A DNA stretch of 64,000 nt. It comes from Escherichia coli. Lineage in GTDB: Bacteria > Pseudomonadota > Gammaproteobacteria > Enterobacterales > Enterobacteriaceae. The stretch lies in NCBI RefSeq assembly GCF_003334305.1, contig NZ_QOWS01000025.1; one strand, written 5' to 3'. The notes beneath the pieces were generated by a model. The model worked only from the letters and a program-made list of their open reading frames with translations. It made no database searches and was not told the DNA's origin. Position numbers and translations under genes: made by a program. Positions 663-61,224 of the stretch are shown here, one piece after another. How positions within the stretch are numbered: the stretch's first letter is position 1; each line of letters opens with the position of its first letter.

Positions 663-1532
663 CTAATACATATTCAGTATGTAAGTGAATCGGCAGGTAG
701 AATCTATGGGCTGTCGAGATGTCGTGTCCACGCGTAGCTTCATATCATGCAGTTGCCTGGACGTAATCGGTTGCGGCTCAGGCGTCACCGTCACTTTGGC
801 ATTATCACAGCCGGAAGTCGAGAAGGTCATCTGCTGTGCGATAAAACGGCAGTAGGCACCACGCTCATCAAAATTATTCCCGTTACACAGTTTGCCATTT
901 TCCATCAGGAAAGTGGGCAGTGTTTGCTCAATAACACCACCTGTTGACTGCAACCTGACGACTTTGTTATGTACAACATAATTTTCATTCCAGGAAACAT
1001 CATACGGTGCCAGGGGCACCGCCGGACATGAAGAACTCACCTTCGTTGGGCCAATATAGTCAGGAAAATCATCATCATACGTTTTAGCGAAGGGATCTCT
1101 ACTCTTAACAAACGACGACACAATCCACGGACAACCATGTAAATTCCCATCGTAATAAACAAACATCTTTAATTCATTACATGTCCATCCCGTTTTGGTC
1201 TGGCTATCATACTGCTCTAATCCAGGACAGGCTGACATGGATACCCTGCTGTCCGAAATTTTCGACATAGATGGTTGAGTAGAACTATCGCCAGTCCACG
1301 AAACTAAATCCGGCTGTGAATTGGGCATGAATGTAGCCTTAAATATAGCGTAATTAACTGAATCTGGCGTCGCTATAATCAGATGAAACTCAAACTCTGT
1401 CGCAGGTGAACTGGCACCAGCTGGCACATATAACTCACCAACTTTCGTCGCCGCCTGGCCGCATGTATTGAACATTAACAGCAATAAAAGACATAAAACA
1501 TGACGAAGGATTTTCATTTTAAATATACTCAA
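663..1532 (-). CDS. yfcO: Yfc fimbrial-like protein YfcO (last gene of operon, putative tip component)
   Basis: 289-aa ORF with N-terminal signal peptide (MKILRHVLCLLLLLMF); real start is probably the internal Met near 1517; last gene of the yfcV-to-yfcO operon. Confidence 0.8.
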   Translation of the reverse strand: MSIFKMKILRHVLCLLLLLMFNTCGQAATKVGELYVPAGASSPATEFEFHLIIATPDSVNYAIFKATFMPNSQPDLVSWTGDSSTQPSMSKISDSRVSMSACPGLEQYDSQTKTGWTCNELKMFVYYDGNLHGCPWIVSSFVKSRDPFAKTYDDDFPDYIGPTKVSSSCPAVPLAPYDVSWNENYVVHNKVVRLQSTGGVIEQTLPTFLMENGKLCNGNNFDERGAYCRFIAQQMTFSTSGCDNAKVTVTPEPQPITSRQLHDMKLRVDTTSRQPIDSTCRFTYILNMY

Positions 1533-2058
1533 AAGTTGCTGTCAGGCTGGCGGTGAAATCACCGATGGTTACATCACGACCGCTTTTCGCCTGGATCCAG
1601 GCCCGGAAATTAATATCATTGTTGCCGTTGGTAAGCGCAAAGGTCGCCCCGGTGGTGTTGTTAATATCCACCCGCTTGCCGTCGAGCGTTTCCATCCCTA
1701 TCCCCACGCCCTGCGCGGTGGAGGTGTCATCGACTGCCAGAAAACCCGGCTGACCGCTGTCTTCGGTGCCGCTCAGCGTGACTTTGACGTTGTATCCCGC
1801 CGGCCCTTTGCAGTCTTTCAGCTTAAACACAACCGGCAGATGCGCGGACTGCCCAGATACCATCAAATCCCGGTTGCTGACGGTGGGAAAATGGATTTCT
1901 GCCAGGTTGGCACCATCCACCACCAGCGTGCAGGATTTACTCAGCAGGTTGCCGTAAAAATGCAGGTTGTTGTCGACTGCCTGAGCTCCTGTGCTGGCGG
2001 TCAGCAGCAGGCCTGCTAACAGCGCATAACCGGGTGAATAAATGTGTGCTGTTTTCAT
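1519..2058 (-). CDS. yfcP: fimbrial-like minor subunit YfcP
   Basis: 179-aa ORF with signal peptide and pilin-like C-terminal beta-strand (TATFEYI); position in yfc operon. Confidence 0.85.
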   Translation of the reverse strand: MKTAHIYSPGYALLAGLLLTASTGAQAVDNNLHFYGNLLSKSCTLVVDGANLAEIHFPTVSNRDLMVSGQSAHLPVVFKLKDCKGPAGYNVKVTLSGTEDSGQPGFLAVDDTSTAQGVGIGMETLDGKRVDINNTTGATFALTNGNNDINFRAWIQAKSGRDVTIGDFTASLTATFEYI

Positions 2059-2543
2059 TGGTAATCCACCCGTAAGGTTGCGTAAGCAGAAAAGGTCGTG
2101 TCCGTCAGCACCGCATCAGCCGCTTTGACCGGTACCGCCTCCAGCTTTGGCTTCTGGCTAAAATCGGTGGCGTTAATGGAAAGCGGCTCGTTGAGCTTAA
2201 AACGCTGACCGTCATGCTGAAGCTCAATTCCGAAGCCCGGTACATCCGTCTCAATAGCAGAGTCGTTGTAGGAGGTGGCAGTCCCCGTCCAGGAGAGTGT
2301 CATATTCCACTCGGGATCGCGGACATCCGAGTCGCAGCTCAGTTCGTAGTCCACTTTCTGACGACCATAATTGCCATCAATGCTGTCGATAATGAGATCG
2401 CGAAATTGCACTTCGATGGTTTGCCCGCCGCTGATGCTACAGGCGGGCGGCGACATCAGCGTACCGTGGAATGTGATGTCATCTTCCGCCGCCAGCACAG
2501 CCCCGCAACCAGCGCACAGTAAAAGGAGCAGGAATTTTTTCAT
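2055..2543 (-). CDS. yfcQ: fimbrial-like minor subunit YfcQ
   Basis: 162-aa secreted pilin-like ORF; 4-nt overlaps with both neighbours suggest translational coupling. Confidence 0.85.
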   Translation of the reverse strand: MKKFLLLLLCAGCGAVLAAEDDITFHGTLMSPPACSISGGQTIEVQFRDLIIDSIDGNYGRQKVDYELSCDSDVRDPEWNMTLSWTGTATSYNDSAIETDVPGFGIELQHDGQRFKLNEPLSINATDFSQKPKLEAVPVKAADAVLTDTTFSAYATLRVDYQ

Positions 2544-3049
2544 TGGTAATCCACCACCATGGTCATCGTGGCGTTAAACTCCGACGGCGTCAGTTGCACC
2601 CCGCTCTGTTTTACCGGCACCGCTTTCAGCTGAGGCTGAGTGTTGACATTAAAAGGCGTCCAGTTATTTTCACCAACTGCAAACAGGGAGTTGTCGGCGG
2701 CGTTTTCTATCCGCACCCCCAGGCCGGCGATATCCGTGCTGAGAACCGTTTCTCCGTTGATCACGGCGGTATTGCCTTTGAGCTGCATCCGTAAGTCATC
2801 GCTGACTTTATTACCGCAGTTGAGGGTGTATTTCGCATCCTGTTGGTAATTGGTACCATCGATCCTGTTGATTATCACATTGCCAAATTTCACAGCGCTT
2901 CCCTTCACGGAGCAAGGCGGCGGTCCATCGACCAGGATTCGCAGCGTCAGATCCACCTGTTTGATATCACTGCCAGCAACAGCCAAACCGCTGATGCCCC
3001 ATCCGGCCAGCACCAGCAACCCTGCGCCCGCTACAAACTTGTGACTCAT
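2540..3049 (-). CDS. yfcR: fimbrial-like minor subunit YfcR
   Basis: 169-aa secreted pilin-like ORF with C-terminal motif TMTMVVDYQ resembling that of YfcQ (ATLRVDYQ). Confidence 0.85.
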   Translation of the reverse strand: MSHKFVAGAGLLVLAGWGISGLAVAGSDIKQVDLTLRILVDGPPPCSVKGSAVKFGNVIINRIDGTNYQQDAKYTLNCGNKVSDDLRMQLKGNTAVINGETVLSTDIAGLGVRIENAADNSLFAVGENNWTPFNVNTQPQLKAVPVKQSGVQLTPSEFNATMTMVVDYQ

Positions 3050-3064
3050 AAGTCCCTCCCGGCA

Positions 3065-3817
3065 TCAGCCTTTGCGGCTCTGCTCTTCATCCACCTGGCA
3101 GCTGTTGCCGGTGCATATGAAGTACAGCGGCATCCGCGCGCCGTAGTCGTTGATGTAAGTCAGCACCGGCACGCTGTCCATCTTCGCATTCAGCGGTGCG
3201 GAGGTTTTCGGCTCCATCATCAGCGGTGTGAATCCCGCCGGCGGGTTGCCGCCTTTTTTAGCGCTGGCGTTGCTGATGATCACGTAGTACGGCGTCGGGT
3301 TATTGACGGTGAAGTCCTGGCCGTTACGGATGAGCGTCACCTTATGCTGCCACGGACTTTTCATGCTGGTGTTCTCCAGCGCCTTCGGTCGCCAGAACAG
3401 TTTGATACGCGTCTGCAGCGCAATCTGCAGTGTGTTCGGTTTATTTGATTTCGGCGGAATTTCGCGCACGTTGAAATAGAACACGCTCTCGCGGTCGGCC
3501 GGCAGTTTGTTGATATCCGGCAGCCCCTGCACCTTCACCTGGCCGTTCATCATCGCATCGATGCGCTGCACTGGCGGAAGCACCGCAAGCGGCGAGCTGA
3601 TTTTGTTGCCCTTTGCATCCTCTATCCAGCTCTGCGCCAGATAAGGCAGTGTGGGATCGTTGTTGCGCAGCGTGACGCTGATGGACTTGTCGCTTTCGTT
3701 AAACACCAGCCGTGTCCTGTCGGGCGTCACCGAAGCGTGGCTGGAGAAACTGACCGCTGTCGCCAGCAGCGCCAGTGCCGGGACAACGATTTTTGCAGTG
3801 TTAGTCAGATTAAACAT
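3065..3817 (-). CDS. yfcS: periplasmic pilus chaperone (PapD-like) YfcS
   Basis: 250-aa ORF with signal peptide and chaperone-family sequence character; position between usher and minor subunits. Confidence 0.9.
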   Translation of the reverse strand: MFNLTNTAKIVVPALALLATAVSFSSHASVTPDRTRLVFNESDKSISVTLRNNDPTLPYLAQSWIEDAKGNKISSPLAVLPPVQRIDAMMNGQVKVQGLPDINKLPADRESVFYFNVREIPPKSNKPNTLQIALQTRIKLFWRPKALENTSMKSPWQHKVTLIRNGQDFTVNNPTPYYVIISNASAKKGGNPPAGFTPLMMEPKTSAPLNAKMDSVPVLTYINDYGARMPLYFICTGNSCQVDEEQSRKG

Positions 3818-3836
3818 GGATCATTCCTTAATCACG

Positions 3837-6479
3837 TTACTGGTTTACTGAAATTGAAGTCGGAGGTTCCGTTGGCGTCACCCGCTGTGTCTGTTCCTGA
3901 ATCGCCGGTTTGACCGCCGGCGAAGTGATAGGTGCTACATTGCCTTTATGCTGGCATGGCAGTAACAAGCCGTTAAACAGATCGGCAGGCAGCGGGTCCG
4001 GCAGGTTGATATCGCAATGCGCAACACCACTCCAGAACACACTCATGTGTTCGCCAGGTTTCACCCCAGCCAGATAAACATTGCCGTCATCATCGACAAG
4101 GCCCACTGTCTGCTCGTTATCATTTTTTACTTCTGCGCCAAACGGAGGATGGCTGCCGTCTTGTAAACGCAGCACCGCCATCGCTTTTTGACCACTGATG
4201 ACGGCAAATTTGCGGTAGCCAATCGCCCCTTCAGTTAGCGTGGCTTGTACCACCGACTGGGTTGCTTCGGCGTTTTCCGGCAGTTTGTTGAGGTCGATAT
4301 ACGCCTGATTGCGGTAATAGTTATTGACGTCAGAAACGACGGCTTTACCAAACATATTGGTATAAACAGCAGCACCGTTACCTTCTACCGGAACATCGGC
4401 AACGCCATCGGCATCAATCAACAAGCGTGTCCCGCCCATATTCTGGGTACGGTGAAGTGCGCCACCGTGGGCAGTAAGCGTTGCGCCGCCCTGTAACGAC
4501 AAGCCCGCAGAGGTGTATTGCCCTTCATGGTAGTTCGCACTGAGGTCAACCTGCGCCAGCGAACCATCATGGCTGTAATAGCCGTCAACGCTGGTGTGTT
4601 TGTCACTGGTGCCGACGTTCAACTGATAGTGAGTCGCGTCATCGACACGGCTGAAATAACCGACCTGACTGCTGTCCGTCCCACTGCCATAGTTACCGTT
4701 ATAGCTAACGGTACTGTTGTCGCCCCACGGCATACTGAGCGAAATGTACATGCCTTTGTCGGCCTGGTTGTCATACTCGTAACGGTAGCCAGTCATCGAG
4801 ATGCTGACATTACGAATACTGCCCATATTGAAATAGTGCGAGAGCATGATGTTGTAGTTTGTCTGCTCCTCGCGATCCCAGTAGGTATGGCGGGTATAGT
4901 TGAGATAAACCGAAACACCCGCATCGCGGAAGTTCTGGTTATAAGTGGCGGTGTACATCTCTTTGTCGTTGCCCGTGCGTACCATTCCGCTGTCACTGGC
5001 ATCCAGATACTCGCTCATGGTCATAAAGTTCTCTTCCGAGAAGCGATATCCAGCAAAAGTAACGCGGCTGTTGAGCTGGTCAAAGTCTTTGGAATAACTC
5101 ACACGGAAGGAGTTACCGTCCAGCGAACCTTTGCCATAAGCGGTGTCTTTATCCAGTTTGGTGTGCGAGTGAGTAACATCAAACGCGACCGCGCCGAATG
5201 TAGACAAATCGCGACCGACGCCAAGCGCCGCAGACTGATAGTTTTCATCTCCCAGTGCGCCGCCATATAACGACCAGCCGTTAGCGATCCCCCAGGAAGC
5301 TTCAGCACCAGAAAAAAATTCACCCTCGACATGGTGTCCCCACTCTTGCGGACGGCCCATCATGATCTTATAGCGAACCTGACCTGGGCGAGTGAGGTAT
5401 GGCATCGAGGCGGTGCTGATGTCATATTCCTGCACCTGGCCGTTCTGTTCTTCAATGCGAATATGCAACGTACCGGAGACAGAATCACCAAGATCCTGAA
5501 TACGAAACGGTCCAGCCGGAACCTGCGTTTCGTAAATCACACGCCCCATCTGGCTGACGGTCACTTTTGCTGTGGTGTGTGCCACGCCGGAAATGTCTGG
5601 CGCGTAGCCGCGCAGATTGGGAGGCAACATTTGATCGTCAGTACTGACACTGCCACCAACATAGTTAAAACCATCAAAAATATCGGATCTGAGGTAATCC
5701 TCGCCCAGCGCCAGTTTGGCTTTTAATGATGGTAACGCCCGCCAGGCATAGTAGCGACTCCACTCCCATTTTTTTTGAGTTTCATCGCCGCTGAATTCAT
5801 CGTCATCATTACTGCGAGTATGTTGATAGTTAGTCTGCCAGTCAGCACGCATACGCCACGGCCCCAGGTTAACCCCGACCGTCCCGTTGCCGCTGATCTC
5901 GTTACTATCATCACCGCCATTTTCTTCGTGCCGGGTTTGTGCGTTGATGCTGTAGTCCGCGACGATCCCGGAGATGCCGTCATCCCAACGTGAAGGCGGA
6001 TCCCAGTCGGGATAAGTATATTCGAGGTAAGCCTGTGGCAGTGAAATGACTAATGCGGACTGGCTTAAATCAGCCTTAATTTCCATGCCTTCCAGTTGAC
6101 CGGATTTCAGGCATTTAGCATCGTGGCTCCATTGCAGATTTTTCGCCACGTCTTCTTTTAAACCAAACTGCGCTACCAGTTCCGGTGTCAGACAAGCATA
6201 GCTTTTGCTCGCGTCATCTTCACCAGCATACCAGTAAATATCGTACTCTTCCGCCAATGGCTGTTTATTTAGTTGAACCTGTAAATTGTATTTTCCGGGC
6301 TCAACATATCCCTGGCTGGAAAAACGCTTCAGATCAATTTTTGTGTCGCCTTTTAATTCCAGAAAACGGGAATCAAACTGAATGTCGTCTTCAGCCCAGA
6401 CACTGCTATAACTCCCTGACATTGCCAGCGCAATGCACCACGGAAGAATCCGTAATCGAAAAAGAGAATGGTCAGGCAT
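3837..6479 (-). CDS. yfcU: outer-membrane fimbrial usher YfcU, full length
   Basis: Uninterrupted 880-aa ORF with signal peptide, typical usher size; in K-12 this gene is a disrupted pseudogene. Confidence 0.9.
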   Translation of the reverse strand: MPDHSLFRLRILPWCIALAMSGSYSSVWAEDDIQFDSRFLELKGDTKIDLKRFSSQGYVEPGKYNLQVQLNKQPLAEEYDIYWYAGEDDASKSYACLTPELVAQFGLKEDVAKNLQWSHDAKCLKSGQLEGMEIKADLSQSALVISLPQAYLEYTYPDWDPPSRWDDGISGIVADYSINAQTRHEENGGDDSNEISGNGTVGVNLGPWRMRADWQTNYQHTRSNDDDEFSGDETQKKWEWSRYYAWRALPSLKAKLALGEDYLRSDIFDGFNYVGGSVSTDDQMLPPNLRGYAPDISGVAHTTAKVTVSQMGRVIYETQVPAGPFRIQDLGDSVSGTLHIRIEEQNGQVQEYDISTASMPYLTRPGQVRYKIMMGRPQEWGHHVEGEFFSGAEASWGIANGWSLYGGALGDENYQSAALGVGRDLSTFGAVAFDVTHSHTKLDKDTAYGKGSLDGNSFRVSYSKDFDQLNSRVTFAGYRFSEENFMTMSEYLDASDSGMVRTGNDKEMYTATYNQNFRDAGVSVYLNYTRHTYWDREEQTNYNIMLSHYFNMGSIRNVSISMTGYRYEYDNQADKGMYISLSMPWGDNSTVSYNGNYGSGTDSSQVGYFSRVDDATHYQLNVGTSDKHTSVDGYYSHDGSLAQVDLSANYHEGQYTSAGLSLQGGATLTAHGGALHRTQNMGGTRLLIDADGVADVPVEGNGAAVYTNMFGKAVVSDVNNYYRNQAYIDLNKLPENAEATQSVVQATLTEGAIGYRKFAVISGQKAMAVLRLQDGSHPPFGAEVKNDNEQTVGLVDDDGNVYLAGVKPGEHMSVFWSGVAHCDINLPDPLPADLFNGLLLPCQHKGNVAPITSPAVKPAIQEQTQRVTPTEPPTSISVNQ

Positions 6480-6560
6480 ACACGTTTCTATCCGTTTTTA
6501 TTCTTGTTCGGTCAAAATCCATTTAAATCCCCCATAGCAGTGTCGCTATGGGGGTATGCC

Positions 6561-7124
6561 TTACAGGTAAGTAATCTGGAAGGTGGTATTTGCTTCGAAA
6601 TTACCCAGATCTGGCGCATCAGCTGCGCCGACCAGCCAGGCTTTAAAGTTCAGTGTCTGCTTCGCTTTGCCTTTATTGGTAGAAGTGTCTTTCACTATTT
6701 TCTGGTCAATACCCATGCCGCTTTTGTAAGAGGTACCCAGAGAGTCACCGATCGCTAGGCTAACATTGTTAAATGCCGCACCGGTATCGGTATTGAAAAT
6801 GGTGTAATAATTGCCGCTATTTGCAGAAGAAACGGTACCAGTAAAGGTAGTGGTCATTGTTTCCTGAGTATCAAATACGCAATCTTGCAGACGAATCTGG
6901 AAACTTTTCGGCGTGGTGGTGCCGTTATTTTTCAGTTTTTCGGCACCGATATCACCCATATCAACTTCCAGTTTGTGATCGTCCGGAACGATAGAACACA
7001 CTGAGTCTTCAATGGTGCCGTAAAAACGTGCAGTACCGTTGTTACCCGCAGCGATTGTTGCCGTAGAGGTGAAAACGCCCATCACCATTGCCGCAGCAAT
7101 AGCTGTTTTAACAAACTTACTCAT
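6561..7124 (-). CDS. yfcV: major fimbrial subunit YfcV
   Basis: 187-aa ORF with signal peptide and pilin-like C-terminus (TTFQITYL); first gene of operon, preceded by a long AT-rich control region. Confidence 0.85.
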   Translation of the reverse strand: MSKFVKTAIAAAMVMGVFTSTATIAAGNNGTARFYGTIEDSVCSIVPDDHKLEVDMGDIGAEKLKNNGTTTPKSFQIRLQDCVFDTQETMTTTFTGTVSSANSGNYYTIFNTDTGAAFNNVSLAIGDSLGTSYKSGMGIDQKIVKDTSTNKGKAKQTLNFKAWLVGAADAPDLGNFEANTTFQITYL

Positions 7125-7752
7125 TATTTGTCCTTAAACTATAAATAATTAAAAATATAAACATTACAATACATTGATTCAGTCAATACCCAATGTTTAT
7201 ACCCAGCCATTGAATACGGCATGCGATCCAAAAAGAACAGGTCGTAGAAAATTGTATTCTTTGGTGTGGGGCCGCATAGTGATGTTTTCACCCCCCTGAT
7301 GCAATTTAATTTTACTAAAGAGTAAATGTAGATTTAATTAATATATTGACAGAAGAAAGGTTATCTTAAGGACATCCTTAAAAAATACGGAATAAGTATT
7401 TAGAAAAAATAGAAAGTATATCAATAATGAATATCAACAGCTTAAAAAACAAACAATGAACATATAATGCGATTGGCATTTATCCACTTTTGACAATATA
7501 ATATATAAACACTATAGCCAGAATTTAATCAAGTTTCAATTACATCCTGCCTGATTATTCAACTCTATTATCTGTATTAATAAATGACAATGAGTGTCAA
7601 ACAGACATTATTCATTTCAACATGTAACTTTGGGCAAAATCAAGATACGCGCAGAAGAATAATTTCCGAATGAATGTAGAAAGTGTTTTATTTATAGATA
7701 AGGAGAGTCTTCGATAGTAGTGAGGTTGACAGATATCCGCTGCCTGATGAGC

Positions 7753-7789
7753 AATTATGCCCAATGAATCTACCTCATTGGGCATAATT
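7753..7789 (-). terminator. stem-loop downstream of sixA (15-bp perfect stem, weak U-tract)
   Basis: AATTATGCCCAATGA-atctacc-TCATTGGGCATAATT begins about 9 nt after the sixA stop codon. Confidence 0.45.
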
Positions 7790-7798
7790 TGGAACACA

Positions 7799-8284
7799 TC
7801 AGATAGCTTTTGCCATCTTCAGATTACACGGGCTCATCTGCCAGTTGAATGTACCGTTTCCGCTTTCATCAAGCGTTACGCTGGCAATGGCCGAGGTGGT
7901 AAACATAGGCGGCGTTTCGCCCGGACATAACTCGGCAACCAGATACCCGACTAACGGTAAGTGAGAGATCACCAGTACCGAAGCAACACCTTCATTGGTC
8001 AACGCCTGCAAATAGGCACTGACCAGACCAACATCGCCGCAGGGCGTTAACTCCGGCAGAACTTCTGCACTGGAAGGCAGGTTCAGACAATCCCCCACTT
8101 CTTCCAGTGTTTGCTCGGCTCGCAGGAACGGGCTCACCAGAACGCGTTCGATTTCCACTTTTTGACCTTTCAGCCAGTTCGCCATCAGGCGAGATTCGTC
8201 ACAACCATTAGTGGTCAGAGGACGAACGGAATCACTGGCGGCATCGAGGGCTGCGTCGCCGTGACGCATGATAAAAACTTGCAT
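7799..8284 (-). CDS. sixA: phosphohistidine phosphatase SixA
   Basis: 161-aa ORF beginning MQVFIMRHGDA (histidine phosphatase RHG motif); conserved position downstream of fadJ. Confidence 0.95.
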   Translation of the reverse strand: MQVFIMRHGDAALDAASDSVRPLTTNGCDESRLMANWLKGQKVEIERVLVSPFLRAEQTLEEVGDCLNLPSSAEVLPELTPCGDVGLVSAYLQALTNEGVASVLVISHLPLVGYLVAELCPGETPPMFTTSAIASVTLDESGNGTFNWQMSPCNLKMAKAI

Positions 8285-8486
8285 ATTGCACCGCTTTTGT
8301 TAACCAGATTCGCCCGTTTTCTTTCATCTGAAACCAGAGAAAGAAAACGGTGGCCGGCATTGTGCCTTATCCATTCACCGAATGAAACGCTGTTTTTTAC
8401 CTCAATGGCGTAAGTATAGTCAATATGCGTTTACATTTTGACCAACACTCCGCCATTCAGCGCGGATTCATATAGCTTTGACCTTC

Positions 8487-19615: not shown

Positions 19616-20530
19616 CTATTCCAGTTCTTGTCGACATGGCAGCGCTGTCATTGCCCCTTTCGCCGTTACTGCAAGCGCTCCGCAACGTTGAGCGAGATCG
19701 ATAATTCGTCGCATTTCTCTCTCATCTGTAGATAATCCCGTAGAGGACAGACCTGTGAGTAACCCGGCAACGAACGCATCTCCCGCCCCCGTGCTATCGA
19801 CACAATTCACAGACATTCCAGCAAAATGGTGAACTTGTCCTCGATAACAGACCACCACACCTTCTGCACCTTTAGTCACCAACAGCATGGCGATCTCATA
19901 CTCTTTTGCCAGGGCGCATATATCCCGATCGTTCTGTGTTTTTCCACTGATAAGTCGCCATTCTTCTTCCGAGAGCTTGACGACATCCGCCAGTTGTAGC
20001 GCCTGCCGCAAACACAAGCGGAGCAAATGCTCGTCTTGCCATAGATCTTCACGAATATTAGGATCGAAGCTGACAAAACCTCCGGCATGCCGGATCGCCG
20101 TCATCGCAGTAAATGCGCTGGTACGCGAAGGCTCGGCAGACAACGCAATTGAACAGAGATGTAACCATTCGCCATGTCGCCAGCAGGGCAAGTCTGTCGT
20201 CTCTAAAAAAAGATCGGCACTGGGGCGGACCATAAACGTAAATGAACGTTCCCCTTGATCGTTCAGATCGACAAGCACCGTGGATGTCCGGTGCCATTCA
20301 TCTTGCTTCAGATACGTGATATCGACTCCCTCAGTTAGCAGCGTTCTTTGCATTAACGCACCAAAAGGATCATCCCCCACCCGACCTATAAACCCACTTG
20401 TTCCGCCTAATCTGGCGATTCCCACCGCAACGTTAGCTGGCGCGCCGCCAGGACAAGGCAGTAGCCGCCCGTCTGATTCTGGCAAGAGATCTACGACCGC
20501 ATCCCCTAAAACCCATACTTTGGCTGACAT
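19616..20530 (-). CDS. cscK: fructokinase CscK (PfkB/ribokinase family)
   Basis: 304-aa ORF with PfkB-family motifs (VLGDAVVD near N-terminus, DSTGAGDAF near C-terminus); upstream of cscB on the same strand. Confidence 0.93.
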   Translation of the reverse strand: MSAKVWVLGDAVVDLLPESDGRLLPCPGGAPANVAVGIARLGGTSGFIGRVGDDPFGALMQRTLLTEGVDITYLKQDEWHRTSTVLVDLNDQGERSFTFMVRPSADLFLETTDLPCWRHGEWLHLCSIALSAEPSRTSAFTAMTAIRHAGGFVSFDPNIREDLWQDEHLLRLCLRQALQLADVVKLSEEEWRLISGKTQNDRDICALAKEYEIAMLLVTKGAEGVVVCYRGQVHHFAGMSVNCVDSTGAGDAFVAGLLTGLSSTGLSTDEREMRRIIDLAQRCGALAVTAKGAMTALPCRQELE

Positions 20531-20636
20531 TTTTTTCCCTTAAATTCATCTGAGTTACGCATAGTGATAAACCTCTTTTTCGCAAAAATCGTCATGGATT
20601 TACTAAAACATGCATATTCGATCACAAAACGTCATA

Positions 20637-20648
20637 GTTAACGTTAAC
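20637..20648. promoter_or_regulatory. candidate CscR operator 1 (perfect palindrome GTTAACGTTAAC)
   Basis: 12-bp perfect palindrome in the divergent cscK/cscA intergenic region; repeated identically 64 bp downstream. Confidence 0.5.
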
Positions 20649-20651
20649 ATT

Positions 20652-20667
20652 TGTGATATTCATCGCA
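20652..20667. promoter_or_regulatory. CRP-like site between the two csc operators
   Basis: TGTGAtattcaTCGCA matches TGTGA-N6-TCACA in 9 of 10 positions. Confidence 0.3.
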
Positions 20668-20700
20668 TTTATGAAAGTAAGGGACTTTATTTTTATAAAA

Positions 20701-20712
20701 GTTAACGTTAAC
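20701..20712. promoter_or_regulatory. candidate CscR operator 2 (perfect palindrome GTTAACGTTAAC)
   Basis: Second identical copy about 30 bp upstream of the cscA start; AT-rich flanks. Confidence 0.5.
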
Positions 20713-20746
20713 AATTCACCAAATTTGCTTAACCAGGATGATTAAA

Positions 20747-22180
20747 ATGACGCAATCTCGATTGCATGCGACGCAAAACGCCCTAGCAAAACTTCATGAG
20801 CACCGGGGTAACACTTTCTATCCCCATTTTCACCTCGCGCCTCCTGCCGGGTGGATGAACGATCCAAACGGCCTGATCTGGTTTAACGATCGTTATCACG
20901 CGTTTTATCAACATCACCCGATGAGCGAACACTGGGGGCCAATGCACTGGGGACATGCCACCAGCGACGATATGATCCACTGGCAGCATGAGCCTATTGC
21001 GCTAGCGCCAGGAGACGATAATGACAAAGACGGGTGTTTTTCAGGTAGTGCTGTCGATGACAATGGTGTCCTCTCACTTATCTACACCGGACACGTCTGG
21101 CTCGATGGTGCAGGTAATGACGATGCAATTCGCGAAGTACAATGTCTGGCTACCAGTCGGGATGGTATTCATTTCGAGAAACAGGGTGTGATCCTCACTC
21201 CACCAGAAGGAATCATGCACTTCCGCGATCCTAAAGTGTGGCGTGAAGCCGACACATGGTGGATGGTAGTCGGGGCGAAAGATCCAGGCAACACGGGGCA
21301 GATCCTGCTTTATCGCGGCAGTTCATTGCGTGAATGGACCTTCGATCGCGTACTGGCCCACGCTGATGCGGGTGAAAGCTATATGTGGGAATGTCCGGAC
21401 TTTTTCAGCCTTGGCGATCAGCATTATCTGATGTTTTCCCCGCAGGGAATGAATGCCGAGGGATACAGTTACCGAAATCGCTTTCAAAGTGGCGTAATAC
21501 CCGGAATGTGGTCGCCAGGACGACTTTTTGCACAATCCGGGCATTTTACTGAACTTGATAACGGGCATGACTTTTATGCACCACAAAGCTTTTTAGCGAA
21601 GGATGGTCGGCGTATTGTTATCGGCTGGATGGATATGTGGGAATCGCCAATGCCCTCAAAACGTGAAGGATGGGCAGGCTGCATGACGCTGGCGCGCGAG
21701 CTATCAGAGAGCAATGGCAAACTTCTACAACGCCCGGTTCACGAAGCTGAGTCGTTACGCCAGCAGCATCAATCTGTCTCTCCCCGCACAATCAGCAATA
21801 AATATGTTTTGCAGGAAAACGCGCAAGCAGTTGAGATTCAGTTGCAGTGGGCGCTGAAGAACAGTGATGCCGAACATTACGGATTACAGCTCGGCACTGG
21901 AATGCGGCTGTATATTGATAACCAATCTGAGCGACTTGTTTTGTGGCGGTATTACCCACACGAGAATTTAGACGGCTACCGTAGTATTCCCCTCCCGCAG
22001 CGTGACACGCTCGCCCTAAGGATATTTATCGATACATCATCCGTGGAAGTATTTATTAACGACGGGGAAGCGGTGATGAGTAGTCGAATCTATCCGCAGC
22101 CAGAAGAACGGGAACTGTCGCTTTATGCCTCCCACGGAGTGGCTGTGCTGCAACATGGAGCACTCTGGCTACTGGGTTAA
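20747..22180 (+). CDS. cscA: sucrose-6-phosphate hydrolase / invertase CscA (GH32)
   Basis: GH32 motifs (WMNDPNG, FRDP, WECPD); ORF track starts at 20738, but the Met at 20747 gives the 477-aa form I recall for CscA (either start is possible). Confidence 0.93.
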   Translation: MTQSRLHATQNALAKLHEHRGNTFYPHFHLAPPAGWMNDPNGLIWFNDRYHAFYQHHPMSEHWGPMHWGHATSDDMIHWQHEPIALAPGDDNDKDGCFSGSAVDDNGVLSLIYTGHVWLDGAGNDDAIREVQCLATSRDGIHFEKQGVILTPPEGIMHFRDPKVWREADTWWMVVGAKDPGNTGQILLYRGSSLREWTFDRVLAHADAGESYMWECPDFFSLGDQHYLMFSPQGMNAEGYSYRNRFQSGVIPGMWSPGRLFAQSGHFTELDNGHDFYAPQSFLAKDGRRIVIGWMDMWESPMPSKREGWAGCMTLARELSESNGKLLQRPVHEAESLRQQHQSVSPRTISNKYVLQENAQAVEIQLQWALKNSDAEHYGLQLGTGMRLYIDNQSERLVLWRYYPHENLDGYRSIPLPQRDTLALRIFIDTSSVEVFINDGEAVMSSRIYPQPEERELSLYASHGVAVLQHGALWLLG

Positions 22181-22187
22181 CATAATA

Positions 22188-23183
22188 TCAGGTGGAACAA
22201 CGGATCAACAGCGGGCAAGGGATCCGCGTCACTCTTCCCCCTTCACGACCTTCAATAATATGCAATGCAGCTTCCCGCCCGATAATGTCATGTGGAAGCT
22301 GAATTGTGGTCAGCGGCGGTAAAAACAGATGCCCGACGCCAACCAGATTATCAAAGCCCATTACGGCGACATCCTGCGGGATACGTACCCCCTTCGCCAG
22401 GAGAACCTGATAAGCGACAAAGGCTGCGCGATCGTTACCACATATCAGAACATCAAAATCTGGTTTGCCCGGTTTGAAGTGGGCATTGAGTAAACTTGCG
22501 AGATCGGTGTAGTGATCATCACCTGTTGCCATGTGAAATTGTTTCACCTCAGCCAGATCTCGTCCAGCATCACGCCAGGCCTGCTCAAATCCCTGCCGAC
22601 GATACCCTGTTGCCAACGCACTTTCCGGTAGCCAGAAGCATAACGGTTGACGATAGCCCGCCGCGAGCAAATGCTGTGTTGATTCATATTGTGCAGTGTA
22701 ATCATCAGGGATATAACTGGGTAACGCTGGGTCATCCGCCACACAGTTCGCCAATACAATATTTTCACCATACAGAGACTCAGGCAGCGTGATATGTCGC
22801 AGCCCCATTGTAGTATAGATAATGCCATCCGGACGGTGGGCAAGCAGCTGACGTGCCGCGCGGGCAGCGTCATCTTCAGAAAAAATATTGATTAAAAAAC
22901 TATTCCAGCCGAACTCGCTGGCGGTTTGCTCAATGGCAAGCAGAATATCAACAGAGAAAGGAGTGGTAGCCGTGTCCTGCGCCAGCACGGCGAGAGTCGA
23001 CGGCTTACGTCCTTGAGCGCGCATCTTACGGGCGGAAAGATCAGGAACATAATTCAGGGTCTGGATTGCCTGCAATACGCGGTCACGCGTTGCAGGACGC
23101 ACAGATTCTGCATTATGCATCACCCGGGAGACTGTCATCATCGACACTCCCGCCAGGCGTGCGACATCCTTTAATGAAGCCAT
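22188..23183 (-). CDS. cscR: LacI-family sucrose operon repressor CscR
   Basis: Start moved to internal Met (MASLKDVARLAGVSMMTVSRV, an HTH LacI-type N-terminus), giving 331 aa; the 397-aa track ORF carries a non-coding 5' extension. Confidence 0.9.
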   Translation of the reverse strand: MASLKDVARLAGVSMMTVSRVMHNAESVRPATRDRVLQAIQTLNYVPDLSARKMRAQGRKPSTLAVLAQDTATTPFSVDILLAIEQTASEFGWNSFLINIFSEDDAARAARQLLAHRPDGIIYTTMGLRHITLPESLYGENIVLANCVADDPALPSYIPDDYTAQYESTQHLLAAGYRQPLCFWLPESALATGYRRQGFEQAWRDAGRDLAEVKQFHMATGDDHYTDLASLLNAHFKPGKPDFDVLICGNDRAAFVAYQVLLAKGVRIPQDVAVMGFDNLVGVGHLFLPPLTTIQLPHDIIGREAALHIIEGREGGRVTRIPCPLLIRCST

Positions 23184-23425
23184 ACCCAAGCCGTTTGCCG
23201 TAAAACGGGCACTGTAGCAGAAACAGACGTCACTGGCGAGATCCAACGATATTCTCAACGCCCTATCACCCAACACGGCAATACAATAAAAAATAACAAT
23301 AATTGCCGGATAATTGTACTCAATTCCGCCTCTGTTCTCGCCAACGAGTAACCATATAGGCAAGTAAGTAAAACATGCCAACTGGCATCGCCAACCTGGA
23401 GAAGAAAATATAAATATGGATCATT

Positions 23426-23644
23426 GTGCTGCCGCTGTATCCCGACATCAGCCCGGAAATTATTGCGATTGCTATCGGTTCAGGTGCAATTGGCTGCACG
23501 ATCGTTACGGACTCGCTTTTCTGGCTAGTGAAGCAATATTGCGGCGCTACGCTCAATGAAACATTTAAATACTATACGACAGCGACATTTATCGCTTCAG
23601 TCGTCGCTCTGGCGGGCACATTCCTGCTGTCATTTATCATCTAA
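23426..23644 (+). pseudogene. dsdX: 3' remnant of a GntP-family permease gene, most likely dsdX (D-serine transporter), truncated by the csc islet
   Basis: 72-codon frame ending 18 nt before dsdA with GntP-type C-terminal motifs (ISPEIIAIAIGSGAIG, DSLFWLVKQY); no matching N-terminal region or promoter present. Confidence 0.6.
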
Positions 23645-23661: not shown

Positions 23662-24990
23662 ATGGAAAACGCTAAAATGAACTCGCTCATCGCCCAGTAT
23701 CCGTTGGTAAAGGAGCTGGTTGCTCTTAAAGAAACCACCTGGTTTAATCCTGGCACGACCTCATTGGCTGAAGGTTTACCTTATGTTGGCCTGACCGAAC
23801 AGGATGTTCAGGACGCCCATGCGCGCTTATCCCGTTTTGCACCCTATCTGGCAAAAGCATTTCCTGAAACTGCTGCCACTGGGGGGATTATTGAATCAGA
23901 ACTGGTTGCCATTCCAGCTATGCAAAAACGGCTGGAAAAAGAATATCAGCAACCGATCAGCGGGCAACTGTTACTGAAAAAAGATAGCCATTTGCCCATT
24001 TCCGGCTCCATAAAAGCACGCGGCGGGATTTATGAAGTCCTGGCACACGCAGAAAAACTGGCTCTGGAAGCGGGGTTGCTGACGCTTGATGATGACTACA
24101 GCAAACTGCTTTCTCCGGAGTTTAAACAGTTCTTTAGCCAATACAGCATTGCTGTGGGCTCAACCGGAAATCTGGGGTTATCAATCGGCATTATGAGCGC
24201 CCGCATTGGCTTTAAGGTGACAGTTCATATGTCTGCTGATGCCCGGGCATGGAAAAAAGCGAAACTGCGCAGCCATGGCGTTACGGTCGTGGAATATGAG
24301 CAAGATTATGGTGTTGCCGTCGAGGAAGGACGTAAAGCAGCGCAGTCTGACCCGAACTGTTTCTTTATTGATGACGAAAATTCCCGCACGTTGTTCCTTG
24401 GGTATTCCGTCGCTGGCCAGCGTCTTAAAGCGCAATTTGCCCAGCAAGGCCGTATCGTCGATGCTGATAACCCTCTGTTTGTCTATCTGCCGTGTGGTGT
24501 TGGCGGTGGTCCTGGTGGCGTCGCATTCGGGCTTAAACTGGCGTTTGGCGATCATGTTCACTGCTTTTTTGCCGAACCAACGCACTCCCCTTGTATGTTG
24601 TTAGGCGTCCATACAGGATTACACGATCAGATTTCTGTTCAGGATATTGGTATCGACAACCTTACCGCAGCGGATGGCCTTGCAGTTGGTCGCGCATCAG
24701 GCTTTGTCGGGCGGGCAATGGAGCGTCTGCTGGATGGCTTCTATACCCTTAGCGATCAAACCATGTATGACATGCTTGGCTGGCTGGCGCAGGAAGAAGG
24801 TATTCGTCTTGAACCTTCGGCACTGGCGGGTATGGCCGGACCTCAGCGCGTGTGTGCATCAGTAAGTTACCAACAGATGCACGGTTTCAGCGCAGAACAA
24901 CTGCGTAATACCACTCATCTGGTGTGGGCGACGGGAGGTGGAATGGTGCCGGAAGAAGAGATGAATCAATATCTGGCAAAAGGCCGTTAA
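23662..24990 (+). CDS. dsdA: D-serine dehydratase (D-serine ammonia-lyase), PLP-dependent
   Basis: 442-aa ORF ([31 protein letters not shown]) with PLP-lysine region (SGSIKARGG). Confidence 0.96.
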
Positions 24991-57499: not shown

Positions 57500-58702
57500 A
57501 TGGACCGCGTCCTTCATTTTGTACTGGCACTTGCCGTTGTTGCGATTCTCGCACTGCTGGTAAGCAGCGACCGCAAAAAAATTCGTATCCGTTATGTTAT
57601 TCAACTACTTGTTATCGAAGTGTTACTGGCGTGGTTCTTCCTGAACTCCGACGTTGGTTTAGGCTTCGTGAAAGGCTTCTCCGAAATGTTCGAAAAACTG
57701 CTCGGATTTGCCAACGAAGGGACTAACTTCGTCTTTGGTAGCATGAATGATCAAGGCCTGGCATTCTTCTTCCTGAAAGTGCTGTGCCCAATCGTCTTTA
57801 TCTCTGCACTGATCGGTATTCTCCAGCACATTCGCGTGTTGCCGGTGATCATCCGCGCAATTGGTTTCCTGCTCTCCAAAGTCAACGGCATGGGCAAACT
57901 GGAATCCTTTAACGCCGTCAGCTCCCTGATTCTGGGTCAGTCTGAAAACTTTATTGCCTATAAAGATATCCTCGGCAAAATCTCCCGTAATCGTATGTAC
58001 ACCATGGCTGCCACGGCAATGTCCACCGTGTCGATGTCCATCGTTGGTGCATACATGACCATGCTGGAACCGAAATACGTCGTTGCTGCGCTGGTACTGA
58101 ACATGTTCAGCACCTTTATCGTGCTGTCGCTGATCAATCCTTACCGTGTTGATGCCAGTGAAGAAAACATCCAGATGTCCAACCTGCACGAAGGTCAGAG
58201 CTTCTTCGAAATGCTGGGTGAATACATTCTGGCAGGTTTCAAAGTTGCCATTATCGTTGCCGCGATGCTGATCGGCTTTATCGCCCTGATCGCCGCGCTG
58301 AACGCACTGTTTGCCACCGTTACTGGCTGGTTTGGCTACAGCATCTCCTTCCAGGGCATCCTGGGCTACATCTTCTATCCGATTGCATGGGTGATGGGTG
58401 TTCCTTCCAGTGAAGCACTGCAAGTGGGCAGTATCATGGCGACCAAACTGGTTTCCAACGAGTTCGTTGCGATGATGGATCTGCAGAAAATTGCTTCCAC
58501 GCTCTCTCCGCGTGCTGAAGGCATCATCTCTGTGTTCCTGGTTTCCTTCGCTAACTTCTCTTCAATCGGGATTATCGCAGGTGCAGTTAAAGGCCTGAAT
58601 GAAGAGCAAGGTAACGTGGTTTCTCGCTTCGGTCTGAAGCTGGTTTACGGCTCTACCCTGGTGAGTGTGCTGTCTGCGTCAATCGCAGCACTGGTGCTGT
58701 AA
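57500..58702 (+). CDS. nupC: concentrative nucleoside:H+ symporter NupC
   Basis: CNT family; start set at Met [14 protein letters not shown] with GGAG upstream, giving 400 aa. Confidence 0.95.
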
Positions 58703-58711
58703 GACCATACA

Positions 58712-58745
58712 TAAAAAAGCCGGGGATAATTCCCCGGTTTTTTTA
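58712..58745. terminator. bidirectional terminator between convergent nupC and pdeA
   Basis: AAAAAAGCCGGGGA-taat-TCCCCGGTTTTTTTT: GC stem with A-run and T-run on either side. Confidence 0.65.
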
Positions 58746-58751
58746 CGCCTG

Positions 58752-60941
58752 TTAATCAGCTAATGGCTGCGGGCGACCAATCAAATACCCTTGCAGATAT
58801 TGCACCCCGAGCTTATGCAATAGCGCCTGCTGCTGTTGCGTCTCGACAAACTCCGCGACCACACTCAATGACTTCGCTTTCGCCAGATCGGTAATTGATC
58901 TCACAATCATCGCATCCAGCGTGTTCGTGACAATATCTTTCACAAAGACGCCATCAATTTTGATGATATCAGCCTGCAAACGCTTTAACCGTTCGTAGTT
59001 GGCATATCCGGTGCCAAAGTCATCAATCGCAATCCGGAAACCAAACTTATGCAGCTGCTCGATGTTGTACATGCTGCTTTCTGCGTTAGAAAACGCCTGC
59101 TCCTCGGTGATCTCAAGAATGACCGCCTGCGGGGAGATGTGATAACGCTTAAACAGACGAATAATCCGCCCGGCAATATTCTTTTGCAGCAGCGTGAGCG
59201 GCATTAAATTGACTGAAAAGCGCGGTCCTTTTTTGTCGCAAGGGTGTGTTGCCAGCCACTTCAACAAGGATTCCAGCACTTGCAAATCAAAACGCGCGCT
59301 AAGGTTAAACTGAGCAATAAGGGGCAGAAACTTATCCGGGGTCATAATGCCGCCGTCATATTTCAGTCGCGCGAGGATCTCATCATAACCTTCACCCTCT
59401 TTGTTGCGAATTGGCTGGGCGTAGAGCAGCAAATCACCCTGATCTAACGCCGTGCGAATGGTATTCAGCAATAGCACCTGTTTAGTGGTCTGCCCGGAAA
59501 CCATCTCCTCTCTGCTATCCAGCGCCAGCACATGATGATGTGCGCAGGATTGCTCCGCCAGCCAGCTTAACTGCCCCAACAAGGGTTGCAGGGTTTCCTG
59601 ATTTCCATCAAAACGCCCCCAGGCAGCACCATAGCCCATATCCAGCCCGGTATTGTTCCAGTGAATTTGCCGACTATTCAGGATGTTAATCATATGCTGG
59701 AGTCGCCCTTCCGTTTCCGGCCCGCTCAGCACTAACAGCAGTTCACTACCCGGCAATTGATACAACTTTTCGTTTTCCTGCATCAACGGCAGCAGCGTAC
59801 GGCAAATTGAGCGGATACAGTGAACGCGCATCATTAAGCCGTAATGACGACTCATAAACTCAAGATTATCAATGCGCAGGCAGCAAAAACTCTTGCCCGC
59901 CTCTTGTTCCGGCGCTTGTTCCAACGCACGAAAGTTGGGTAGGAGCGTTAACGGATCTGTCAGCGCCTGCAAATGCCAGCGGCGATTAAGCCATTCACTG
60001 CGATGATAAATGCGCACCATATAGAGCAGGCAAACGCTAAAGGAAATCAGCACCGCAAGAATAAATGCCAGCGAATATTCGGTTTCCACCCCTTGCAAAA
60101 AGTTCTGGTTGTAATTCAGCAGGCAAAGCGTTGAAACAGCCCAGGTGAGATTTAAAAACGGATAGCGAAGCTTACCGACCCCGAGGGTAAAGATGATGAA
60201 GAAAACGGGTACCAAGTAACCGGCAATAAAGTCGTTTTCATAAGGTGTGCACAACAGAAGTAGCAGCACGCTTAACGCTGCCAGCCAGCTTAAGGTAAAT
60301 GCGCGTTTCTCTTTGCCCAACGACGGAGCGATATCCCTGCGCCACAATATCTGCGCAAAGTGGGGACTTACAATCATGCGAGTGAGATAGTAGAAAAGCA
60401 TGTTGTAAATCAGCACAGCGGTGAAAAGGCTTAGCAAATCAACGACCGTGAAAATGGCATCCGCATCGCCGAAAAAGGTGGATATCTTTAGCGGGAAATC
60501 AAAGAAGCTCCCCACAAGATACATGCTGCATTTGATGCCGATCGGCGTCACCAAACCAAGCCAGAACAGACGTTGCCAGACATATCGGCTGGTCAATCCA
60601 TAACGCCAACGCGTCCCCAGCTGCCAGCGTAATATTGCGCAGGCACACAACACGACAAACGTCTGGCTACCGAGCATGACCGCAGTCTGTAAAAAAGAGA
60701 GATGAAAGTTCCACAGATTGGTGCAAAACATCCCGCATAAAACGGGAACGACACCGCGCCAGCCAAAGATAAACAAGATTGACAGCATTACGCACAGTGG
60801 CATCCACGCCAGAAAGATATAACTGGAATGGATAATGGCAAGTGGCGAAATAAAACGGGATAGCTGAATAAGTACCACGGTGAGCGTAAACGCTAGTGTG
60901 AATATCTTGATATTTTTTATCAGGTTATGCTCCACAAACAT
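58752..60941 (-). CDS. pdeA: c-di-GMP phosphodiesterase PdeA (YfeA): MASE1 membrane domain, degenerate GGDEF, EAL
   Basis: N-terminal multi-TM MASE1 region and C-terminal EAL domain (EITEEQAF, DDFGTGYANYERLKRL); start at internal Met gives 729 aa. Confidence 0.9.
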   Translation of the reverse strand: MFVEHNLIKNIKIFTLAFTLTVVLIQLSRFISPLAIIHSSYIFLAWMPLCVMLSILFIFGWRGVVPVLCGMFCTNLWNFHLSFLQTAVMLGSQTFVVLCACAILRWQLGTRWRYGLTSRYVWQRLFWLGLVTPIGIKCSMYLVGSFFDFPLKISTFFGDADAIFTVVDLLSLFTAVLIYNMLFYYLTRMIVSPHFAQILWRRDIAPSLGKEKRAFTLSWLAALSVLLLLLCTPYENDFIAGYLVPVFFIIFTLGVGKLRYPFLNLTWAVSTLCLLNYNQNFLQGVETEYSLAFILAVLISFSVCLLYMVRIYHRSEWLNRRWHLQALTDPLTLLPNFRALEQAPEQEAGKSFCCLRIDNLEFMSRHYGLMMRVHCIRSICRTLLPLMQENEKLYQLPGSELLLVLSGPETEGRLQHMINILNSRQIHWNNTGLDMGYGAAWGRFDGNQETLQPLLGQLSWLAEQSCAHHHVLALDSREEMVSGQTTKQVLLLNTIRTALDQGDLLLYAQPIRNKEGEGYDEILARLKYDGGIMTPDKFLPLIAQFNLSARFDLQVLESLLKWLATHPCDKKGPRFSVNLMPLTLLQKNIAGRIIRLFKRYHISPQAVILEITEEQAFSNAESSMYNIEQLHKFGFRIAIDDFGTGYANYERLKRLQADIIKIDGVFVKDIVTNTLDAMIVRSITDLAKAKSLSVVAEFVETQQQQALLHKLGVQYLQGYLIGRPQPLAD

Positions 60942-61148: not shown

Positions 61149-61224
<76 letters not shown>

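Follow-up and report, generated by a model that had tools for sequence, protein, structure and literature searches.

An unoccupied IS186 site in a predicted bidirectional terminator between nupC and pdeA of a non-K-12 Escherichia coli genome

The converging Escherichia coli genes nupC and pdeA are separated by a copy of the insertion sequence IS186 in K-12 MG1655 and by just a short spacer in the 64,000-nucleotide stretch of E. coli DNA analysed here (the window; features in the table), which raises the question of what the uninterrupted junction represents and what it reveals of the genome that carries it. Our answer, in which we place high confidence, is that the spacer is the ancestral form, free of any insertion, of the site that holds IS186C in MG1655, that its hairpin is most likely a terminator common to the two genes, that the stem of this hairpin is a target preferred by IS186, and that the genome is of a non-K-12 lineage with a sequence identical to that of strain A7.

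Table. Features of the window, with positions counted from its first nucleotide
Feature	Position	Strand	Remarks
yfcU usher	3837-6479		intact 880-aa ORF; normal CDS in A7
argW	17781-17855		
cscB	18297-19544		
cscK	19616-20530		
cscA	20747-22180		
cscR	22188-23183		LacI-family
dsdX, truncated	23426-23644		
dsdA	23662-24990		intact
nupC	57500-58702	+	nucleoside:H+ symporter, 400 aa; stop TAA 58700-58702; ORF list and RefSeq annotation of strain A7
nupC/pdeA intergenic spacer	58703-58751	.	49 bp, between converging genes, set by two stop codons
Bidirectional intrinsic-terminator-like hairpin	58713-58744	.	A6, G, 7-bp stem CCGGGGA/TCCCCGG, loop TAAT, T7
Unoccupied IS186 target motif	58722-58735	.	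GGGG-ATAATT-CCCC (GGGGATAATTCCCC); sole match in window
pdeA (yfeA)	58752-60941	-	putative c-di-GMP phosphodiesterase, 729 aa; ORF list and RefSeq annotation of A7
tRNA-Ala(GGC)	61149-61224		single gene

The spacer and its predicted terminator

The genes on either side of the spacer are close to those of MG1655, NupC being the same at all 400 residues and PdeA at 728 of 729 (the sole change is V418I), and the order mntH-nupC-pdeA-tRNA-Ala-yfeC-yfeD-gltX is conserved; the TAA stop of pdeA reads TTA on the plus strand (58752-58754). A first-pass annotation of this DNA had put the gap between the converging genes at about 49 bp, which is exact, and had described the junction as clean. The spacer is indeed uninterrupted, and a blastn search with the 1337-bp IS186 gave no match in the window, whether at this site or elsewhere.

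The sequence of the spacer, GACCATACAT-AAAAAA-G-CCGGGGA-TAAT-TCCCCGG-TTTTTTT-ACGCCTG, contains a GC-rich hairpin (58719-58738 for the hairpin proper) that lies between an A-run and a T-run. The 7-bp stem has six G-C pairs (eight pairs in total if a closing G-U is counted), encloses a 4-nt loop, and starts 17 nt past the nupC stop and 14 nt past the pdeA stop. On the plus strand a U-tract of seven T (58738-58744) comes directly after the stem; on the minus strand a C separates the stem from six T (the complement of 58713-58718). A consensus scan of the spacer scored a terminator-like site on each strand. Folded as RNA, the 49 nt reach -22.6 kcal/mol on the plus strand (z -6.0) and -24.1 kcal/mol on the minus strand (z -5.6), an equally stable fold being obtained in none of 200 dinucleotide-preserving shuffles, and the core 8-pair stem by itself gives -15.6 kcal/mol. 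The stem-loop, the U-tracts and the placement after both stops are, at the level of sequence, those of a bidirectional Rho-independent terminator, and the hairpin is most likely one such terminator common to the nupC and pdeA transcripts, at which transcription would be expected to terminate in vivo. The earlier description of a single strong bidirectional terminator is accurate in this sense, because of the hairpin with U-tracts on both strands, the fold energies and the z-scores.

Two other candidate elements in the spacer were considered and rejected. An Rfam search at a permissive E-value returned sub-threshold matches only, all to terminator-bearing models and including Leu_leader at the hairpin (28 bits, where gathering requires 50) and two sRNA families; the scores are far under gathering and fit a generic hairpin-plus-U-tract, and the sRNA or leader reading was dropped. 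A sigma-70-like match on the minus strand (58755-58726, 9/12) was dismissed, since the region has 8 promoter-like sites where shuffles give 5.7 +/- 2.4, which is no more than chance.

Both the hairpin and its G4-N6-C4 motif are kept in ST131, O157:H7 and other lineages sampled. Variation between lineages is small and concerns the base right after the stem (T or C) and the length of the T-run, with the C of other lineages lying on the plus-strand side of the stem, as against the minus-strand side in this allele. In strain ECN24 the allele GGGGATCATTCCCGGC (aligned to 58722-58738) has lost one C and has a changed loop, by which the IS186 motif is broken and the stem weakened. A scan of genome contigs for the exact 29-mer of the hairpin returned a single match, in an Alkalicoccobacillus assembly, and nothing on other species; such a scan may have missed the E. 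coli representative through a C for T after the stem or another T-run length. The matching contig, NZ_VLXZ01000152.1 of the Alkalicoccobacillus porphyridii assembly (289 bp, 1.4x coverage), is 100% identical to window positions 58552-58840 and is almost certainly E. coli contamination.

The IS186C site in MG1655 and other genomes

In MG1655 (NC_000913.3) nupC (b2393, ending at 2514244) is followed by IS186C (2514273-2515617; its gene insL3/b2394 shares the strand of nupC) and then by pdeA (b2395, from 2515643). The first-pass annotation had placed an IS186 copy of MG1655 at this junction, and had staked its reading on MG1655 having an insertion sequence there; since IS186C does lie between nupC and pdeA, the reading stands. 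The element sits inside the hairpin, and its junctions read ...GCCGGGGATAATTCCC|ATAAGCGC...GCGCTTAT|GGGATAATTCCCCGGTTTTTTT or, in longer form, ...AAAAAAGCCGGGGATAATTCCC|ATAAGCGCTAAC...(1337 bp)...GTTAGCGCTTAT|GGGATAATTCCCCGGTTTTTTT... The 12-bp sequence GGGATAATTCCC, which occurs once in the window (58723-58734), is found on both flanks of IS186C, and when the window is aligned to MG1655 by blastn the two flanking blocks overlap by exactly these 12 bp. The share of this repeat that is target duplication as opposed to element end is ambiguous, owing to the palindromic target and to the IS ends being put four bases further out in the annotation of MG1655.

For each of the two genes MG1655 is left with a 4-bp stem without a U-tract, and the 60 nt after each stop fold to only -12.4 and -10.7 kcal/mol. 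Judged by these features, nupC and pdeA of MG1655 are predicted to have lost the native terminator on both sides, so that K-12 transcript-end maps would here be unrepresentative of most E. coli.

The window contains one GGGG(N6)CCCC site, that in the hairpin, and no GGGG(N7)CCCC site. With 0.65 N6 sites expected by chance in 64 kb, the one observed is about what chance would give, and the motif gains its meaning solely from its exact coincidence with the documented IS186 insertion point. The consensus target of IS186 was reportedly first defined by SaiSree et al. in 2001, whose title, as cited in PMC3045373, presents the lon promoter as an IS186 hot spot. The target is given as 5'-GGGG(N6/N7)CCCC-3' by Lee et al. 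2016 (PMC5009759), who count no more than 19 N6 sites in MG1655 and find that some sites are struck repeatedly and that insertion occurs in either orientation; the word "terminator" has no occurrence in that paper. Searching the literature for nupC along with IS186 gave no match.

The state of the junction was scored in 5426 complete E. coli genomes. It is uninterrupted in 4461 (82.2%), holds IS186 in the K-12 orientation in 472 (8.7%) and holds IS186 reversed at the same position in 465 (8.6%), i.e. the site is occupied in 937 genomes (~17%), with the element reversed in roughly half of these. The other 28 fall into none of these three classes, an example being Stbl4, whose match overlies an annotated IS2 transposase. 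ATCC 8739 has the flanks and the 12-bp GGGATAATTCCC repeat of MG1655, with an IS that is identical at 1337 of 1337 positions and flipped. Carriers include clearly non-K-12 strains, among them clinical, animal and seawater isolates, and IS186 at nupC-pdeA is not K-12-specific. The clean junction, as the majority state, therefore excludes K-12 on its own and names no lineage; the polymorphism of the site could nevertheless make it a simple typing marker.

The other two resident copies of MG1655 occupy similar sequences. IS186A (1392-2728 in the MG1655 segment compared) adjoins hokC and IS186B (3012-4348 in its segment) lies just downstream of hokE; each is flanked on both sides by a 12-bp GGG...CCC repeat, and their reconstructed empty sites are the GGGG-N6-CCCC hairpins GGCGGGGATCACTCCCCGCC and GCGGGGAGTAATCCCCGC. 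All three copies of MG1655 are found at GGGGA-N4-TCCCC hairpin sites with 4-nt loops and 12-bp repeats, and the site in the window is a hairpin of this form too. It is conceivable, though we think it rather unlikely, that IS186 selects stem-loop (terminator-type) DNA and not merely G4...C4, with the nupC/pdeA terminator a recurrent neutral "safe harbour" struck independently in both orientations across lineages. Since the motif coincides with hairpin stems, the element could land between converging genes at little cost, and the coincidence, which rests on four sites, is a mildly interesting generalisation. If such a choice of stem-loops were real, occupancy and orientation could serve to mark lineages, and IS186 could be predicted to land at the empty site.

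Genomic background of the window

Over 1-61224 the window matches E. coli strain A7 (NZ_CP028767.1), an isolate from orangutan faeces, at 100% identity, the sole difference being one missing 115-bp tRNA-Ala unit; its identity to MG1655 by blastn is 94-99%. The first-pass annotation had taken the junction, together with an intact usher gene, a csc islet and an empty argW site, to indicate a non-K-12 background, and each of these observations is borne out. The usher gene yfcU is a pseudogene (b4661) in MG1655 and uninterrupted here. The csc sucrose islet (17856-23644, with cscBKAR) comes directly after argW and stands in place of dsdC and the 5' portion of dsdX; K-12 has these two, together with the CPS-53 prophage, where the window has the 5.6 kb from argW to dsdX. 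Neither an integrase nor CPS-53 follows argW (17855) in the window, and the 3' end of argW, duplicated in K-12 as the pawZ att remnant, has no second copy downstream. IS186C, CPS-53, an intact dsdC-dsdX, the yfcU pseudogene and the alaX and alaW pair, all features of K-12, are absent from the window, and the conclusion that the background is non-K-12 is upheld by the 100% identity to A7, itself a non-K-12 strain, against only 94-99% to MG1655.

Identity to MG1655 is uneven along the window. Positions 1-713 and 1504-17855 are ~94.3% identical, with 64 gaps upstream of argW, and the yfcO adhesin gene between them (714-1503) had no megablast match in MG1655. The alignment stops at the end of argW (17855) and restarts within dsdX (23427), from where it is 98.9% identical up to the hairpin and 99.8% on the pdeA side. 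Identity accordingly steps sharply at argW, from ~94.3% (yfc fimbrial operon to yfdC) to 98.9-99.8% downstream, a step that suggests either a recombination boundary or divergence of the fimbrial/fad segment. Four further strains (41, WL164, FCI51 and TUM12355) are 100% identical over window positions 1-25000 but span ~30.5 kb, not 25 kb; they carry a "phage head-binding domain" gene and ~5.5 kb of extra phage-related DNA, whose position at argW is a guess.

Two tandem copies of the tRNA-Ala(GGC) gene, in a 115-bp unit, are present in MG1655 (alaX, alaW) and in A7, as against the single gene of the window. The single-copy state was found in none of the 15 best-matching complete genomes and in one (ETEC4077) of a spread sample of 30. 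Genomes with a single copy would make up a small minority, as a rough statement only, the two-copy query being a poor discriminator for which single-copy genomes reach 91% coverage once alignment pieces are joined. The single gene could reflect a real unequal-crossover deletion or a collapse in assembly.

Origin of the empty site and comparison with known systems

The preferred reading can be set out as a sequence of events. One hairpin with an A-run and a T-run would end both converging transcripts, nupC and pdeA, and the GGGG-N6-CCCC of its stem is a sequence favoured by the IS186 transposase. In K-12 and in the ~17% of sequenced E. coli with an occupied site, IS186 has entered this hairpin in either orientation, placing GGGATAATTCCC on both sides, splitting the predicted terminator and leaving each gene a 4-bp stem that lacks a U-tract. 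The source genome of the window, from a non-K-12 lineage that is sequence-identical to A7, has most probably never received the insertion.

A clean junction could also have been restored by precise excision of IS186 from a K-12-like, occupied ancestor, which would recreate this very sequence with its one copy of GGGATAATTCCC. We consider such a history highly improbable: excision is very rare, having been seen in 1 of 857 IS events over 520 mutation-accumulation lines (PMC5009759), the empty allele makes up 82% of genomes and is found in lineages as distant as ST131 and O157:H7, and the remainder of the window is non-K-12 too. Because most genomes have the empty allele, which is phylogenetically widespread, and because IS excision is so rare, we infer that the empty state is ancestral. 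There is similarly very little chance that IS186 is present in the source genome and was dropped in assembly, the repeat having been collapsed or skipped. The 115-bp tandem tRNA-Ala unit that is missing relative to A7 is a possible hint of repeat collapse, but a 1.3-kb multi-copy IS normally breaks a contig and is not spliced out to a perfect empty site, no target duplication remains, and several complete genomes, A7, L73 and C012 among them, match the junction at 100% identity.

The remaining rival concerns what the hairpin does, and not how the site came to be empty. Stable 3' hairpins guard mRNAs from exonucleases, and the hairpin might mainly stabilise mRNA 3' ends in this way, belong to a small-RNA gene or be a palindrome bound by a protein, with which the weak Rfam matches that overlap it would agree. 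We regard this as very improbable, given that those matches score far under gathering and are accounted for by a generic hairpin-plus-U-tract, that the layout is a textbook one for a terminator (17 and 14 nt after the stops, U-tracts on both strands), that no nearby promoter rises above chance, and that destruction of the hairpin is tolerated in K-12. A common terminator for nupC and pdeA, predicted from these features, remains the preferred function.

The locus, as judged from its sequence features, combines elements that are already known, i.e. a textbook bidirectional terminator, the empty form of a K-12 IS186 site and the canonical IS186 motif. It marks the window as non-K-12 and displays the form that the locus had before IS186C arrived, and is of little importance beyond this.

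The closest known counterpart is the IS186C site of MG1655 itself, which is the same locus with the same neighbours and a pdeA-side flank that is 99.8% identical, and from which the window differs in having neither the 1337-bp element nor the second copy of GGGATAATTCCC, i.e. in being the empty allele. The hairpins of IS186A and IS186B, in contrast, are without flanking A- or T-runs and lie beside hok/sok loci, not between converging housekeeping genes. Bidirectional Rho-independent terminators between convergent E. coli genes likewise consist of one GC-rich hairpin with an A-tract and a T-tract in a short gap; the present one differs in being predicted from sequence and in the C between the stem and the U-tract of the minus strand. 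Like IS186 hot-spot targets, the site fits the N6 form of the motif exactly and is, across genomes, occupied in both orientations, as reported at hot spots. Unlike those targets, the motif here is also the stem of a putative terminator between converging genes, so that insertion strikes neither a coding sequence nor a promoter.
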